From contig JAGWBK010000001.1 in assembly GCA_021295915.1 (NCBI GenBank), forward strand, positions 139,644 to 203,643: DNA of 64,000 bases, read 5' to 3'. Under the pieces are notes generated by a model, which made no database searches, was not told the DNA's origin, and worked only from the letters and a program-made list of their open reading frames with translations. Both the position numbers and the translations under genes were made by a program. The DNA is from Dehalococcoidia bacterium (GTDB lineage Bacteria > Chloroflexota > Dehalococcoidia > Lucifugimonadales > UBA1123). Of the stretch, positions 11,946 through 61,173 are shown in pieces (positions within the stretch are counted from its first letter, which is position 1; the number at the start of each line of letters is the position of its first letter).

Positions 11946-12968
11946 TCAGTTCCCTACTGGTCTCAGGACGCCCACAAACGGCAGATTCCTATAGGACTCC
12001 ATGTAGTCGAGACCGTAGCCAACGAGGAACTCGTCCGGCGCTTCGAAACCCACGTACTTGACATCAACGTCCGCGATTCGCCTTGCCCGCTTGTCGAGTA
12101 GAGCGCAGACTTCGACGGTAGCCGGTTGGCGAGACTGCAAGTGAGCGATCAGCCAGTTCAACGTCATTCCAGTATCCACGATGTCCTCAACCAGGATGAC
12201 GTCCGAGCCGTCGATACCCAGATCCAGCCCTTTAGTAACTCTGATATCCGGCCCATGCTCCCCGGCATAGCGCGAAATGGACATGAAGTCCATACGAGTG
12301 GGCAGCGAGATCTGGCGCATAACGTCTGCCATGAAACAGACCATTCCTCTCTGTACGCCAATCAGTACGGGGCGCTTGCCTGCATAGTCTCGTGAAATCG
12401 TCCTCCCTAGCTCCTGCACCCTCTGCTGAATCTGACGCTCCGAGTATAAGACACGGGAAATGCCGGGCAGGTCGGACTCGACGAGGGGGCCAAACCCGAA
12501 CTTCGCCAGAAGACGGTGAAAGTCCCTCCGGTACAGGAGTTTTATGTTAACTTCGGGATACAGTTCCCGGATGCGCCTGAGCTTGCGATTCTTCTGAGTA
12601 ACCAGCGACTGCTTCATGGTCGTTAGTTCAAGGTAGAGATCGAGATCAGGCAGATAGAAGTCCGGGGTAAGCATTTCGGTGGCCCGGTCACCATCCCATC
12701 GGAGAGGGAATGAGAGAGGCTCATAGTCCCAGCGAAGACCGTAGAAGTCCAGAATTCTCGCGAACTCTAGCTCGCTAGGATGAGCAAAATTGGGTTCAGC
12801 CCCGCCTGCCACGTTGGGCACGGGAGTGAACCTGGACGTTTCGACATCGACCAACCGACACCTCCGCGTCAAACCGGCACGCTCCAGTGTTTGACCGCAA
12901 GGATAGCACATACGCGCTAGATGATAAATCCGCTGCCCTTGCACTATACATGACAGTGGATTGACCAT
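11946..12968 (-). CDS. hpt: hypoxanthine phosphoribosyltransferase with an N-terminal extension of about 160 aa (nuclease-like fold)
   Basis: The C-terminal 175 aa carries the PRPP-binding motif VILVEDIVDTGMTL and ends GYGLDY..YRNLPFVGVL. The N-terminal part has a PD-(D/E)xK-like pattern (TPDFYLPDLDLYLELTTMK). The start codon is uncertain. Confidence 0.85.
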   Translation of the reverse strand: MVNPLSCIVQGQRIYHLARMCYPCGQTLERAGLTRRCRLVDVETSRFTPVPNVAGGAEPNFAHPSELEFARILDFYGLRWDYEPLSFPLRWDGDRATEMLTPDFYLPDLDLYLELTTMKQSLVTQKNRKLRRIRELYPEVNIKLLYRRDFHRLLAKFGFGPLVESDLPGISRVLYSERQIQQRVQELGRTISRDYAGKRPVLIGVQRGMVCFMADVMRQISLPTRMDFMSISRYAGEHGPDIRVTKGLDLGIDGSDVILVEDIVDTGMTLNWLIAHLQSRQPATVEVCALLDKRARRIADVDVKYVGFEAPDEFLVGYGLDYMESYRNLPFVGVLRPVGN

Positions 12969-12989
12969 AGTTCCGGCGCTTCATATAAT
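12961..12989 (+). promoter_or_regulatory. sigma70-like promoter, TTGACC-N17-TATAAT, for the 343-aa/UGSC gene pair
   Basis: The -35 is at 12961-12966 and the -10 at 12984-12989, about 30 nt upstream of ATG 13019. The -35 overlaps the annotated hpt start on the other strand. Confidence 0.5.
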
Positions 12990-13018: not shown

Positions 13019-14050
13019 ATGACAAGTGGGCAACTGAGTTCGGCACGACTGGAGTTCGACTCATGGAATGAAGTCGTGGAAGGATTCATGGACCGTGGAT
13101 GGACGGACGGCCTTCCGATCATTCCCCCGACTCCAGACCTCGTCAACGCCTGCCTTGATGCAGGGGGACGCAATCCATCAGACATACTTGCGACTGAGCC
13201 CACCAAGGGTAGAGTGATCACCGCAGAGAAAGTGGCGGTGAACGCCGTCATGGCAGGCTGCAAGCCAGAGTATTTCAAGGTCGTCGCAGCTGCCGTCGAA
13301 GCGATGAGCGAACCTCAATTCAATCTGCACGCCATCACGGCCAGCACACAGGGTTCGGCCCTGCTTGCCCTCGTAAACGGTCCGGTTGCCAAAGAGATCG
13401 GCTTGAACTCCGGTGTCAGCGTATTTGGGCCAGGGCATAGGGCAAACGCCACTATTGGGAGGGCTATCCGCCTTGTAGTCATCAACGCCACCGGCTCCCG
13501 GTCGGGGGAGATCGATAAGGCTACGCTTGGCCATCCAGGCAAGTACACGTGGTGTATGGCTGAGGCCGAGGACGTCTCGCCCTGGGAGCCGTTCCAGGCT
13601 AACAGGGGGTTCTCCGAGGAGCAGAGTACGATCACTCTGTTTCCCGCACTCTCCCCTATCCAGGTCGACAACCACGCGTTCCAACGTCCTGAGGAGATCC
13701 TGGTCTCGTTCCGTGAAGCCATGTTTGCCGGCGGAGGCGGATGGAACCAGGGGGAGGTCGTAGTCGTCCTCTGCCCTGAGCACGTCGGGAATTTGGAACG
13801 CGCCGGCTGGAGCAAGGAGCAAGTGCGCGAGTTTCTTCATGACTCGGCGAGGCGTCCTATAGATGAGTGGCGCGCGGCGGGAAGATACATAAGGGACGAT
13901 GTGGGACAGCCTGGCGATGAACTACACTCACTCAATAGTTCGGAAGGTATTTCAATTGTTGTTGCAGGCGGTGGCGCTGGAGCGTTCTCCTGTGTAATAC
14001 CATTGTGGAGCGGTGGAATTGGAGCTAGATCGGTAACCCGGTTAATCTAG
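13019..14050 (+). CDS. conserved-looking protein of unknown function, upstream partner of the UGSC selenoprotein
   Basis: 343-aa ORF with coding-like composition and motifs GWTDGLPIIPPT, NAVMAGCKPEY and ANATIGRAIRL. I do not recognise the family. Its stop is 13 nt before the UGSC gene. Confidence 0.7.
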   Translation: MTSGQLSSARLEFDSWNEVVEGFMDRGWTDGLPIIPPTPDLVNACLDAGGRNPSDILATEPTKGRVITAEKVAVNAVMAGCKPEYFKVVAAAVEAMSEPQFNLHAITASTQGSALLALVNGPVAKEIGLNSGVSVFGPGHRANATIGRAIRLVVINATGSRSGEIDKATLGHPGKYTWCMAEAEDVSPWEPFQANRGFSEEQSTITLFPALSPIQVDNHAFQRPEEILVSFREAMFAGGGGWNQGEVVVVLCPEHVGNLERAGWSKEQVREFLHDSARRPIDEWRAAGRYIRDDVGQPGDELHSLNSSEGISIVVAGGGAGAFSCVIPLWSGGIGARSVTRLI

Positions 14051-14063
14051 GAACAAGAGGAGG

Positions 14064-14609
14064 ATGCTGATGACAACTGCAGAACTCGTAGTATTGGATC
14101 CCACGGTAGAACCCCTACCGTCGGAAGGGGTCGTCGCGGACCGACCGACCACGCTGGACGGGCTAACGTTGGGACTTCTTGCGAATGGGAAGTTGAACTC
14201 GGTTGAGATGCTCACGGCGATCCACGACGTGCTGGCCGACAGGTTTGAATTTGCTTCCGTAGTGGAGCGAAACAAGCACAATGCCTCTCGACCATGTCCC
14301 GAGGAGATCATCGACGAGCTTGTCGATAAGTGCGACGTGGTGGTCACGTCATCGGGCGATTGAGGGTCCTGCTCGTCGTGCAGTGTGCACGACGGAATTA
14401 CCCTTGAGAAACGCGGAGTCCCGACAGTAGTGATCTGCACAGAGCCCTTCATCACGAGCGCTGACGCCATGGCAGCGTTGGGCGGAGTTCCTGACTACCC
14501 ATATGTGGTGGTACCCCACCCGCTGGGAAGCAGGACGATGGAGCAGCTCAGGGAGCTTGCCGCAGCGGCAGCACCTGATGTGCTGTCCATACTTCTCGCT
14601 CAGAAGTAG
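14064..14609 (+). CDS. UGSC-family selenoprotein (GrdB C-terminal-like), with in-frame TGA = Sec at 14361-14363
   Basis: ORFs 14064-14363 and 14385-14609 share one frame. Reading through the TGA gives ...DVVVTSSGD-U-GSCSSCSVHDGITLEKRGVPTVVICTE...VPHPLGS. A GGAGG lies just upstream of the ATGs at 14064 and 14070. A SECIS-like hairpin follows the TGA. Confidence 0.8.
14374..14394 (+). promoter_or_regulatory. bacterial SECIS-like hairpin
   Basis: Perfect 9-bp stem cgtcgtgca/tgcacgacg with apical GUG. It starts 10 nt after the TGA at 14361-14363. Confidence 0.6.
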
Positions 14610-14662: not shown

Positions 14663-14692
14663 GCGACCACACCCAAGCTTGGGTGTGGTCGC
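14663..14692. terminator. bidirectional intrinsic terminator (perfect 30-nt palindrome)
   Basis: The palindrome gcgaccacacccaagcttgggtgtggtcgc is flanked by an A-rich tract (aaaagaga) upstream and a T-rich tract (cttgcttt) downstream. It sits between the convergent UGSC gene and tRNA-Sec. Confidence 0.65.
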
Positions 14693-14714: not shown

Positions 14715-14823
14715 TGGCGGGAGCGAGAGGGAGTCGAACCCACCGCGCCAACCGCTGGGTTGCCGCCGGACGGTTTTGAAGACCGCGAGAGGGTGTAAAA
14801 GATGGTACCTCGAGAGGGCTTCC
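14715..14823 (-). tRNA. selC: tRNA-Sec-like gene (anticodon UCA); 5' boundary uncertain
   Basis: The minus strand reads GCGGU-CUUCAAA-ACCGU, with anticodon UCA at 14777-14779. It has a long extra arm containing CCAGCGG, a GGGUUCGACUCCC T-arm and a terminal GCCA. The D-arm and 5' acceptor strand could not be folded convincingly by hand. Confidence 0.6.
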
Positions 14824-14873: not shown

Positions 14874-15200
14874 TTAGGCTATTGCCTCGTCGACGCGCTT
14901 CTTCAGCATGGACTTCGGGACGGCGCCCACCACCTGGTCAACTGCCTTGCCCTCGTTGAAGATGAGCAGTGAAGGAATTCCACGAATACCGAACTGCATG
15001 GCGGTCTTGGGGTTGGAGTCTACGTCCAGCTTCGTGAACTTCACCTTGCCCGCATACTCGCCGGCCAGTTCTTCGACAATTGGGGCGATCATCTTACAGG
15101 GACCGCACCACTCGGCCCAGAAATCTACCACTACGGGAACGTCCGAGTTAACGACCTCGTCCTCAAAAGTGGCGTCTGTAATCTCAACTGCGTTTGCCAT
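14874..15200 (-). CDS. trxA: thioredoxin
   Basis: 108 aa with the active site WAEWCGPCKM. Confidence 0.95.
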   Translation of the reverse strand: MANAVEITDATFEDEVVNSDVPVVVDFWAEWCGPCKMIAPIVEELAGEYAGKVKFTKLDVDSNPKTAMQFGIRGIPSLLIFNEGKAVDQVVGAVPKSMLKKRVDEAIA

Positions 15201-15959: not shown

Positions 15960-17216
15960 CTAGACGCTTGAAAGGGACGGCATTGATCTTAGCCTCCCCA
16001 CCAAGTCTGTCAGGGTTTCTATCATGTAGTCGACGTCTTCGTCAGTTGTTTCCCTTCCAATAGTGATACGCAGACTGCCCTGCGCCAGATCCGCCGGGAG
16101 GCCAATGGCAGTCAACACGTGGGACGGCTCAAGGCTCGCCGACGAGCAGGCAGAGCCGCTAGATGCGCAGATCCCAGCAAAGTCCAGTCCCAGAAGGATT
16201 GGCTCCCCCTCGACGTTTTCGAAAGAAACGTTCACATTATTGGGCAGCCTTGTAGTGGGATGACCATTCAACTTCGCATTCGGTATTCGCTCATGAATCC
16301 CGTGAATGATCATATCGCGGAGCTTTATCAGGCGCTCTGTTAGCGCAGTTCTCTCGCCTTCTGCGAGGCGGATTGCCTCAGCCAGTCCCACGATGGATGG
16401 CACATTCTCCGTGCCTGATCGCCTCTCGCGCTCCTGGCCGCCACCCAGTATCAACGGCTCAAATGGCGTTCCACGCTTAATGTACAGAGCCCCGATGCCT
16501 TTAGGCCCGTGCAACTTGTGCCCGGACAGACTCAGGAGATCGACGCTCAGGTCCCGAACATTTACGTCGATAGCGCCGACGGCTTGGACTGCATCGGTAT
16601 GGACGTAGATCTTCCTGTCAAATCTGAGGGCTTCCCTCTTGACCGCGGCTGCGATCTCCGCGACGGGCTGGATAGTACCTATCTCGTTATTGGCAAGCAT
16701 GACGCTTACCAGGACGGTACGCTCGGTTATCGCTCCAGCAACGTCCACCGGGTCGAGAAGCCCGTGCTCGTCGACAGGCAGATACGTAACGTCGAATCCG
16801 AACTGCTCCAACTGATGACAGGCGTGCAGGACCGCATGGTGCTCTATGCTAGTTGTAATGACATGATTGCCGATGTTTCTGAGGGCAGTGGCCACCCCTT
16901 TGATGGCGGCGTTGTCAGACTCGGTGCCACCCGACGTGAAGACCACTTCACTCGCCCTGCAGCCCAGGGCCTTGGCAATTGACCTGCGCGATTGATCGAC
17001 GGCCCCCCTGCTCTGCTGAGCCAACTCGTAGATGCTTGATGGGTTGCCGAATCCTTCCGAAAAGTAAGGCAGCATGGCCTGCACCACCTCCGGTCTAACC
17101 GGAGTGGTGGCAGCGTAGTCCATGTAGATCAGCCTGTCGGTCGCAACCACTGAACCAGTCTCTCTGTCACTATCTTTCAATGTGTCCGCGAATGCGGGAC
17201 TCCAATTGTAGCGCAC
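15960..17216 (-). CDS. cysteine desulfurase (NifS/IscS-like class V aminotransferase)
   Basis: 418 aa. The PLP lysine motif is [17 protein letters not shown] and the catalytic Cys loop is SSGSACSS. Confidence 0.9.
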
Positions 17217-30317: not shown

Positions 30318-31688
30318 ATGGTCTCAAAATTTCGAGCGTTGCCGTCCGTTAATGACGTGCTAAGTGATCCCCGAATTGCCGAGCTTGTCGAGAAGTACTC
30401 GCACGAGGCAATAGTGGACATCGTGCGGGAGGAGCTGGACGGAGCAAGAAGTTCGATCAGCTCCGGCGGTGAGCCCCCTGATGCGGACGCACTGACCAAG
30501 TCCGTGGCAGCCGAGGCAGAGTCCAGGTGGCGGCCATGGCCACAGGGCGTGATAAACGCCACTGGTGTTGTACTGCACACAAACCTCGGCAGGGCGCCGT
30601 TAAGCAGCAGCAGTTTCGAGGCCATGAGAGTCGCCGCTGCCGGATACAGTGACCTCGAATTCGACCTTGCGGCAGGAAGGCGCGGTTCTAGGCAGCAGCA
30701 CGTCTCGAACCTGATATGCCAGACGACCGGTGCCGAGGCCGCGTTGGCGGTCAACAACAATGCGTCGGCCGTGATGCTCGGACTTGCAGCAATTGCAACC
30801 GGTAAAGAGGTGATCGTTTCGAGGGGTGAGGCCGTCGAGATCGGCGGCGGATTCAGGATTCCTGACGTACTGAGCCAGAGTGGGGCGACTCTTGTTGAAG
30901 TTGGTACCACCAACCGTACGTACGCCTCTGACTTCGCCTCTGCCATCAACGAACGAACAGGAGCAATCCTGTCAGTTCACGCCTCTAACTTCAGGGTCAT
31001 GGGATTTACGCATGCGCCTACTACAGCGGAACTCGTGAACGTTGGAGAGAGTTCGGGTGTGCCGGTGCTTCACGATCTGGGCAGTGGTTGTCTGCTGGAT
31101 TCGAGTAAGTATGGACTTGCCCACGAACCGATGCCGCAGGAGAGCATCTCAGCGGGCGTCGCACTCAGCTTCTTCTCGGGAGACAAACTGCTGGGTGGTC
31201 CACAGGCCGGGATAATTGCCGGCCAGAGCGAGTACGTTGCCACTGTGTCGCGGCACCCACTGGCCAGGGCAGTCAGGATCGACAAGTTGAGCATGGCAGC
31301 CCTGTCAGCAACTCTTCTCCACTACATCAACGGAGACCCCGAATCCGAGGTCCCGGTCTGGCGGATGATCTCGGCCACGATAGCCGAACTGACAGCACGC
31401 GCCGACTCCTGGAAGTCGGCAGCCGGTCCGGGGGCAAGTGTCGTCAGTGCAAGATCGGCCATAGGCGGCGGCAGCCTGCCGGGCGAGACACTGGAATCCG
31501 TCGCGCTCCGCATCGACTGCAACGAGTTGGGTACTACCCCCGACGTCGCTCTCAGCGAGCTAAGGAAGGGAACGCCGCCGGTCATTGGCAGGATCGAGGA
31601 TGACAGTGTCATGCTCGATCCCAGGACTGTACTACCCGAACAGGACGAGGCAGTTGCTGGCACAATACAGCGCCTCATGAGTGTGTGA
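30318..31688 (+). CDS. selA: L-seryl-tRNA(Sec) selenium transferase
   Basis: 456 aa. The N-terminus is FRALPSVNDVL and the PLP lysine region is FSGDKLLGGPQAGII. Confidence 0.9.
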   Translation: MVSKFRALPSVNDVLSDPRIAELVEKYSHEAIVDIVREELDGARSSISSGGEPPDADALTKSVAAEAESRWRPWPQGVINATGVVLHTNLGRAPLSSSSFEAMRVAAAGYSDLEFDLAAGRRGSRQQHVSNLICQTTGAEAALAVNNNASAVMLGLAAIATGKEVIVSRGEAVEIGGGFRIPDVLSQSGATLVEVGTTNRTYASDFASAINERTGAILSVHASNFRVMGFTHAPTTAELVNVGESSGVPVLHDLGSGCLLDSSKYGLAHEPMPQESISAGVALSFFSGDKLLGGPQAGIIAGQSEYVATVSRHPLARAVRIDKLSMAALSATLLHYINGDPESEVPVWRMISATIAELTARADSWKSAAGPGASVVSARSAIGGGSLPGETLESVALRIDCNELGTTPDVALSELRKGTPPVIGRIEDDSVMLDPRTVLPEQDEAVAGTIQRLMSV

Positions 31689-61088: not shown

Positions 61089-61173
61089 TGGTGGGGAAGG
61101 GGAGACTCGAACTCCCACGCCTTTCGGCACATGATCCTAAATCATGCTCGTCTACCAATTCCGACACTCCGGA
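61089..61173 (-). tRNA. tRNA-Leu (anticodon UAG) with three mismatched terminal acceptor pairs
   Basis: The minus strand reads UCCGGAG-UG-UCGGAAUUGGUAGACGA-G-CAUGA-UUUAGGA-UCAUG-(extra arm GCC-GAAA-GGC)-GGGAG-UUCGAGU-CUCCC-CUUCCCC-A-CCA. The D, anticodon, extra and T arms are all canonical. The anticodon is at 61137-61139. Confidence 0.75.

Follow-up and report, generated by a model that had tools for sequence, protein, structure and literature searches.

Introduction

The UGSC-containing proteins are a UxxC selenoprotein family from the Sargasso Sea and Global Ocean Sampling (GOS) metagenomes, and they rank among the most abundant families of marine selenoproteins. The GOS data comprise 255 selenocysteine (Sec) forms and 21 cysteine (Cys) forms of these proteins, and their function is listed as unknown in the literature (PMC2398784; PMC9312934; PMC13188914). 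In this study we describe a member of this family in a 64,000-nt stretch of DNA from a Dehalococcoidia bacterium (assembly GCA_021295915.1, contig JAGWBK010000001.1, positions 139,644 to 203,643), which as a whole is referred to as the window. A reading made from the letters of the window alone (hereafter the sequence-only reading) had proposed that two apparent open reading frames (ORFs), at 14064–14363 and 14385–14609, are the halves of a single gene interrupted by a recoded UGA, with a hairpin resembling a selenocysteine insertion sequence (SECIS) directly behind it. As judged by the comparative evidence presented below, the UGA at 14361–14363 is a conserved Sec codon rather than a stop codon, a mutation or the product of codon reassignment, and the interval 14064/14070–14609 is very probably a single UGSC-family selenoprotein gene that is read through it.

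The second described system to which this locus can be compared is the bacterial SECIS (bSECIS). Its consensus, as quoted in PMC13188914, comprises an apical loop of 3–9 nt on a stem of 4–16 bp, a G in the first two loop positions that is usually followed by G or U, a loop that is separated from the UGA by 16–37 nt, and a minimum free energy no higher than −7.5 kcal/mol.

A UGSC-family gene with an in-frame TGA

Reading of the window confirmed that the ORFs 14064–14363 and 14385–14609 share one frame, with the TGA at 14361–14363 as the sole separator between them. Translated from ATG 14064 on the forward strand to the TAG stop at 14607–14609, the coding sequence (CDS) yields 181 aa (MLMTTAELVV...VVVTSSGD-U-GSCSSCSVHDGITLEK...LLAQK), in which the UGA specifies residue 100 and the surrounding peptide is ...SSGD-U-GSCSSCSVHDG... 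The Shine–Dalgarno sequence AAGAGGAGG (14055–14063, forward strand), which is kept in the related loci L007, L008 and L012, directly abuts ATG 14064 (0 nt) but stands 6 nt from ATG 14070, and because of this spacing ATG 14070 is the more likely true start. As such, the single read-through protein that had been proposed stands, whereas its proposed length of 181 aa gives way to a likely 179 aa.

Family scans were performed on the joined protein with U written as C. The protein matched the NCBIfam model NF041046, 'UGSC family (seleno)protein', at 149.5 bits (cut-off 125) over residues 33–177 and profile positions 2–146 of 147, as well as the Pfam model PF24696, 'UGSC family', at 199.8 bits (cut-off 25) over residues 10–178. 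A profile search of 1.84 billion representative proteins returned 3,757 relatives at E ≤ 0.001, and homologues already bear the name 'UGSC family (seleno)protein' at NCBI. By these matches, the window gene is an ordinary orthologue in a curated selenoprotein family known since 2005, and is not new.

Relatives of the locus were gathered in a scan with one genome per species, which gave 80 loci (numbered with the prefix L), nearly all of them from metagenome-assembled genomes of Dehalococcoidia/SAR202. The count at the TGA column was made on 86 fetched loci together with the window, i.e. 87 sequences of 57–98 % amino-acid identity. The codon at this column was TGA in all 87, and the frame stays open for ∼81 further codons downstream. 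The nearest relative, OY762210.1 (L007), shares 98 % amino-acid identity in the UGSC protein and 94.7 % nucleotide identity over 10.5 kb. The two genes differ at 17 codons synonymously and at three non-synonymously; as these differences span both halves, both the part before and the part after the TGA are under purifying selection.

Protein searches returned many 99–100-aa proteins that end exactly at ...SSGD, together with full-length proteins that carry GD-C-GSC there. When these Cys-containing homologues were aligned, as the sequence-only reading had suggested, they ran through the site with a Cys opposite the TGA. Hence the family does not simply end at this position: the Cys forms are contiguous proteins, and the frame of the Sec forms is open and selected on both sides. 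When 33 sequences were aligned, distant Cys forms among them, the columns G-D-C/U-G-S-C-S were at least 90 % conserved and the third Cys of UGSCSSC was not. The U-G-S-C-S-S-C motif noted earlier is therefore present in the window, but only its U/C-G-S-C portion is conserved across the family, the third Cys being specific to some lineages. A scan of the window for other in-frame TGA codons with coding potential on both sides gave no convincing case besides the UGSC gene.

The hairpin downstream of the UGA

A perfect hairpin within the CDS (14374–14394, forward strand) begins 10 nt past the TGA, exactly as first described. It consists of nine pairs, from C14374–G14394 to A14382–U14386, with a possible additional U14373–G14395 wobble, and is capped by the apical loop GUG (14383–14385); its invariant core, UCGUGCA-GUG-UGCACGA, occupies 14376–14392. 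The geometry claimed for it agrees with the published bacterial consensus on all four counts: the loop measures 3 nt (GUG, or 5 nt if taken as AGUGU) on a stem of 9 bp, the apex reads A-[G-U-G]-U, 19 nt (14364–14382) lie between the UGA and the loop, and the fold has an energy of −15.3 kcal/mol. A lower helix given by RNAfold (GGGU 14364–14367 with ACCC 14400–14403) was dropped from the element, its bases being unconserved in the relatives.

The folding energy of the single sequence is modestly unusual (z = −2.07, with five of 200 shuffled sequences folding equally well), and the strong evidence against chance comes from the comparative data. In order to describe synonymous variation, we used 84 distinct Sec-form genes with pairwise nucleotide identities of 52–99.6 % (median 71 %). 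Codons 105–109 read TCG TGC AGT GTG CAC across these 84 genes, with one CAT as the lone synonymous change. Normalised codon entropy was 0.084 at codons 105–110 compared with 0.68 at the other 81 conserved degenerate columns. No other six-codon stretch of the gene had so low an entropy, and all remaining degenerate columns varied. Where the loop codon does change, it changes only from GTG to ATG or TTG and retains the G-U, such that the loops across the 84 genes are GUG, GUA or GUU. To judge from this pattern of codon use, the hairpin is under selection at the level of RNA, and it fits the bacterial SECIS model. By the established bacterial mechanism, SelB carrying Sec-tRNA(Sec) would bind the apical G-U loop whilst the ribosome sits on the UGA, and would insert Sec there.

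Selenocysteine machinery and truncated tRNA genes

The window contains a gene for L-seryl-tRNA(Sec) selenium transferase, selA (30318–31688, forward strand), which matches TIGR00474 over its full length at 531.9 bits (cut-off 267.9). It lies 16 kb from the UGSC gene and is followed by a gene for a RarA-type AAA ATPase in the same frame.

Downstream of the UGSC gene, on the reverse strand at 14715–14791, we found a remnant comprising the 3′ three-quarters of a tRNA-Sec gene (selC), with the anticodon UCA at about 14777–14779 and an encoded CCA end; tRNA nucleotides 1–23 are missing. The remnant scores 30.3 bits against Rfam RF01852, below the gathering score of 47; at gathering thresholds Rfam gave nothing near the UGSC gene, and ARAGORN found no tRNA in the window. 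All 76 nt of the remnant (14716–14791) match the intact 98-nt tRNA-Sec of L001 and L007–L031 (100 % identity). Compared with L007, L008 and L012, it shows a clean 23-bp deletion (GCCACCAGGCCCTATCCGCTCCC) with its junction at 14791|14792; the 5′ acceptor strand is lost with it, as is most of the D arm. Neither the missing 5′ part of tRNA-Sec nor a second UCA anticodon arm was found elsewhere in the 64-kb window. Among the related loci, intact tRNA-Sec genes (anticodon UCA, encoded CCA) are present in 29 of 80, the L001 copy scoring 66.2 bits. In 23 of these 29, which are the closest relatives, the gene starts ∼100–700 nt past the UGSC stop on the opposite strand; 20 of the 80 genome loci, as well as L001, share a tRNA that is 100 % identical from end to end.

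The second tRNA gene of the window, tRNA-Leu(UAG) (61089–61170, reverse strand), is affected as well, the first three acceptor nucleotides (GGG) being absent or replaced by TCC. Its 109 orthologues begin GGGG[A/G]AG|TGTCGG, whereas the window reads ...TATAATTCC|GGAG|TGTCGG; at the 5′ edge (61170), GGAGTGTCGG stands without the preceding GGG, immediately after a TATAAT box. Nothing is missing from the 3′ strand, CTTCCCC-A-CCA, and Rfam aligns model positions 4–67 only. Both tRNA genes of the window are thus 5′-defective, each with its breakpoint exactly at the 5′ boundary of the tRNA. Throughout the rest of the alignment between the window and L007 there are just five 1-nt indels, all of them intergenic. 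Because both breakpoints fall at a tRNA 5′ boundary, the tRNAs are identical among many co-occurring species and indels are otherwise few, the clipped tRNA genes are probably a joining error at a repeat shared between genomes during metagenome assembly. Neither the junction of the selC deletion nor an intact allele with that leader was found when a metagenome collection, from which this lineage is absent, was scanned.

Alternative readings of the UGA

Several observations weigh against the decoding of the UGA as Sec in this genome. As assembled, the selC of the window lacks nucleotides 1–23 and the remnant cannot fold into a cloverleaf, and a scan of 20 large ORFs of the window, in a genome of ∼3.5 Mb, gave neither selB nor selD. 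With respect to the hairpin, no Rfam family was found at its position, only chance-level matches to snoRNA and miRNA models, and its stem pairs are invariant within the SAR202 set, which leaves the distant Sec-form locus L212 as the sole support from covariation. A 620-aa GTPase that was considered as SelB proved to be TypA/BipA. For Sec to be inserted in this genome a functional selC is required, and there is none in the window as assembled.

The alternative that survives best is that the 23-bp deletion in selC abolished Sec decoding only very recently, in which case the UGA would now act as a stop, the product would be a 99-aa fragment and the gene would be a fresh, undecayed pseudogene. This would account for a selC gene beside the UGSC gene that is devoid of the 5′ acceptor strand along with part of the D arm when it is intact in every close relative, as well as for the lack of a second tRNA-Sec in the 64-kb window. 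Against it stand the intact UGSC gene, SECIS and selA, the excess of synonymous over non-synonymous differences from L007 given above, and a hairpin that is stronger in the window than in L007 (−11.7 kcal/mol). Moreover, the clipping of tRNA-Leu(UAG) exactly at its 5′ boundary suggests that assembly failed systematically at sequences which co-occurring species share, as opposed to two lethal deletions having arisen independently, and we consider a recent loss improbable. Similarly improbable is that both 5′ truncations are real, with a lineage that either matures 5′-defective tRNAs in an unusual manner or has just lost Sec decoding. Were this the case, tRNA-Leu could need template-dependent 3′-to-5′ repair of the Thg1-like kind, for which we know of no in vivo documentation in bacteria; and, if Sec decoding had been lost, an intact selenoprotein gene, SECIS and selA would remain behind.

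Turning to the possibility that the TGA is a normal stop codon or arose by nonsense mutation, leaving two genes or a dead gene, public gene callers do annotate two fragments and a GTG codon is available at 14385. No Shine–Dalgarno sequence precedes 14385, however, and the seven codons from the TGA to this GTG, which encode GSCSSCS and include the invariant G-S-C of the family, are conserved as protein, so that the downstream part does not behave as an independent gene with its own start. Together with the conservation of TGA in 87 of 87 sequences, the contiguous Cys forms and the purifying selection on the downstream half, this makes an ordinary stop or nonsense mutation exceedingly unlikely.

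Just as implausible is a reassignment of TGA to Trp or Gly (genetic code 4 or 25) with no Sec involved. One database entry (P0001) does show W for the homologous TGA, but homologues carry Cys at this column and neither Trp nor Gly, selA is present, and selC is present in the relatives. In addition, 16 of the 38 long ORFs in the window end in TGA, among them selA and argS with full-length family matches, and for this reason we regard TGA as not reassigned in this genome.

Finally, there is a negligible chance that the frozen nucleotides after the TGA merely reflect codon preference or protein constraint with no RNA element behind them: the invariant stem pairs of the SAR202 set indeed give no covariation signal, but Ser, Cys and Val elsewhere in the gene use two to six codons each (entropies of 0.6–1.6 bits; 1.64 bits at Ser75 compared with 0 at Ser105 and Ser107, the latter always AGT), the Cys-form genes L087, L089 and L091 spell the peptide with other codons and have no hairpin (in L089, CSSCSVV is TGC AGC TCC TGC TCG GTC GTC, with a fold z-score of +0.27), and L212, although its peptide differs (UGSCVARSLRD), forms a hairpin at the corresponding position that retains the apex GC-AGUUU-GC and has its third stem pair changed on both sides, from U-A to C-G, in a compensatory manner.

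Gene context and public annotation

The gene directly upstream of the UGSC gene (13019–14050, forward strand) encodes a conserved 343-aa protein of an uncharacterised family, hereafter the partner, and is probably co-transcribed with it. A sigma-70-like promoter candidate, TTGACC-17-TATAAT, lies at 12961–12989 on the forward strand and agrees with 11 of 12 consensus positions, a consensus match only. On the other side, between the convergent UGSC and selC genes, a hairpin that resembles a bidirectional intrinsic terminator (14663–14692) has a stem of 13–14 bp and T-rich tails on both strands; its stem is kept in L012 through the paired changes CCCA/TGGG to CCTG/CAGG. The promoter-like site, the 343-aa ORF, the UGSC gene and the terminator-like hairpin have, by sequence, the anatomy of a two-gene operon.

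We were able to find more than 7,900 homologues of the partner, all named hypothetical. Searches of Pfam and NCBIfam, even at lax thresholds (E up to 5), gave chance matches only, and neither the partner nor the UGSC protein had a significant match to PDB chains in single-sequence or profile searches. A structural model of the partner (pLDDT 77.5) likewise gave no significant fold match (best E 0.046, TM-score 0.23); its weak resemblance to cyanuric acid hydrolase and to class I fumarase was treated as noise. Motifs invariant in the partner family are GWTDGLP..PPT, NAVMAGC.PE and FGPG.RANA.IGRA.

The partner is encoded in 77 of the 80 related loci, mostly directly upstream of the UGSC gene, and is also found beside Cys-form UGSC genes (44–50 % identity) and distant Sec-form ones. 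Additionally, the two are fused in the proteins P0313, P0329, P0353, P0355, P0364, P0387 and P0331. In fusions of 541–657 aa the partner follows a Cys-form UGSC domain, with P0313 matching at 36 % identity over 320 aa (E = 4e−67). The text of the 2008 report notes a fusion of UGSC to a domain termed 'Unknown_1' (PMC2398784). The partner family is probably this domain, here in the form of an adjacent gene. Two further kinds of fusion point to a redox role for UGSC: P0301 joins it to a thioredoxin-reductase-like pyridine-nucleotide disulfide oxidoreductase, and the 277-aa actinobacterial-type proteins P0006, P0008 and P0009 carry a weakly matching NifU-like C-terminal domain with a CxxC motif.

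Beyond selC, the reverse strand encodes a thioredoxin (14874–15200; PF00085, 119.8 bits), which may serve to reduce the UxxC centre, and a putative NifS-type cysteine desulfurase (15960–17216), whose L001 homologue carries the Pfam domain Aminotran_5. The order UGSC, selC, thioredoxin, a 196–212-aa protein and NifS-type cysteine desulfurase is conserved in 27 of the 80 loci; loci with this neighbourhood are L007–L031, L043, L047, L059 and L072. Placed beside selC, the NifS-like enzyme could supply selenium as a selenocysteine lyase.

The expectation that standard gene callers would split the gene was borne out, as public calls give a 99-aa fragment and a second one of 46–83 aa. Public calls for Sec-form UGSC genes are systematically divided in two, for instance at L001 (6001–6546), L004 (2572–3117), L212 (3001–3576) and L005 (128–658), and protein databases consequently hold many shortened UGSC entries of 99–105 aa. 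In the NCBI/ENA entry P0001, the DNA of which reads TGA, the codon is translated as Trp. The practical value of the present analysis thus lies in annotation, given that UGSC genes in SAR202 and other metagenomes are mostly fragmented or mistranslated in public calls.

Fold and proposed function

In order to gain insight into the structure, an AlphaFold2 model was generated for the Cys-form homologue P0002 (pLDDT 91.9). The model shows a five-stranded parallel beta/alpha domain with the Cys/Sec position in the turn that leads from strand 3 into helix 3. Its best PDB matches were flavodoxin-like (3fni and WrbA, 2rg1) with TM-scores of 0.4–0.5, and no thioredoxin appeared among the 50 best matches listed. 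A thioredoxin-like fold for UGSC, as suggested previously (PMC2398784), is not supported by this model, and the fold is predicted to be flavodoxin-like instead.

UGSC residues ∼74–163 weakly match the Sec-bearing C-terminal region of GrdB, GrdF, GrdH and PrdB in NCBIfam (E 2e−6 to 5e−3), and these matches agree with one another. The corresponding scores fall far below the cut-offs (TIGR01917, 26.9 vs 602 bits; TIGR01918, 23.2 vs 65; TIGR04483, 16.3 vs 300), which counts against a function of this type, and because the partner is moreover unrelated to GrdE/PrdA, we do not regard UGSC as a member of these families. It is at most a remote relative of GrdB/PrdB that may work in a similar way.

On this analogy, UGSC would be the redox-active small subunit of a two-component enzyme with the 343-aa partner, a model that we put forward tentatively and to which we give slightly less than an even chance. 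The GrdB-type hits, the UxxCxxC motif, the linkage to the partner in 77 of 80 loci together with the fusions, the P0301 protein, the adjacent thioredoxin gene and the P0002 model all speak for it. The product, of ∼19 kDa, would hold Sec100-x-x-Cys103(-x-x-Cys106) at the N terminus of a helix in a flavodoxin-like alpha/beta domain, and would represent a stand-alone relative of the catalytic segment of selenoprotein B. Its Sec would attack a substrate held by the partner, and the neighbouring Cys would resolve the adduct to a selenenylsulfide, such that the Sec/Cys pair cycles between the selenol/thiol and selenenylsulfide states, with the thioredoxin system re-reducing the latter. The predicted fold and the UxxCxxC motif point to a reductase of the GrdB/PrdB type rather than to a thioredoxin. 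That UGSC and its partner form a widespread two-subunit seleno-reductase is, in our view, more likely than that the tRNA truncations are real. The UGSC–partner module is therefore put forward as a candidate seleno-reductase, which gives a hypothesis that can be tested for this abundant selenoenzyme.

Comparison with known systems

The recoding event itself is a textbook case and no new kind of biology, and it shows that a genuine selenoprotein gene can be found by a reading of sequence alone. When set against the fdhF-type SECIS of Escherichia coli and the bSECISearch model, the predicted element of the window likewise lies in the CDS directly 3′ of the UGA, with spacing and stability within the limits, and its small apical loop, opening with G-U and closed by an A-U pair, conforms to the pattern N1-G-[G|U]-N-N2. 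It differs from the fdhF SECIS in having a minimal triloop or pentaloop, it is known from sequence as a prediction, and its stem sequence is presumably unrelated to the fdhF stem.

With GrdB, GrdF, GrdH and PrdB, UGSC has in common the UxxC(xxC) motif (UGSCSSC in the window), which is reported for GrdB and PrdB and in which the two Sec positions putatively correspond. Common to both would also be a small selenoprotein accompanied by a larger partner subunit, with a dithiol or thioredoxin as the expected reductant. In contrast, the ∼300-aa N-terminal part of GrdB is absent from UGSC, and the UGSC partner is unrelated in sequence to the pyruvoyl proenzymes GrdE/PrdA, which again tells against the functional model. 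As for the remainder of glycine reductase, no grdA, grdC or grdD was seen near the UGSC gene. The hosts differ as well: classical GrdB/PrdB systems come from amino-acid-fermenting clostridia, whereas UGSC is found here in a SAR202-type Dehalococcoidia bacterium.

The closest match remains the UGSC family itself (NF041046/PF24696; PMC2398784), with which the window gene agrees in its hidden Markov model scores, the U-G-S-C column, the existence of Cys homologues and the marine habitat, and from which it differs in nothing essential. Compared with the published description of the family, the fold predicted here is flavodoxin-like as opposed to the thioredoxin-like suggestion of PMC2398784, and a tail-to-tail arrangement of the UGSC gene with selC in this SAR202 clade is added.

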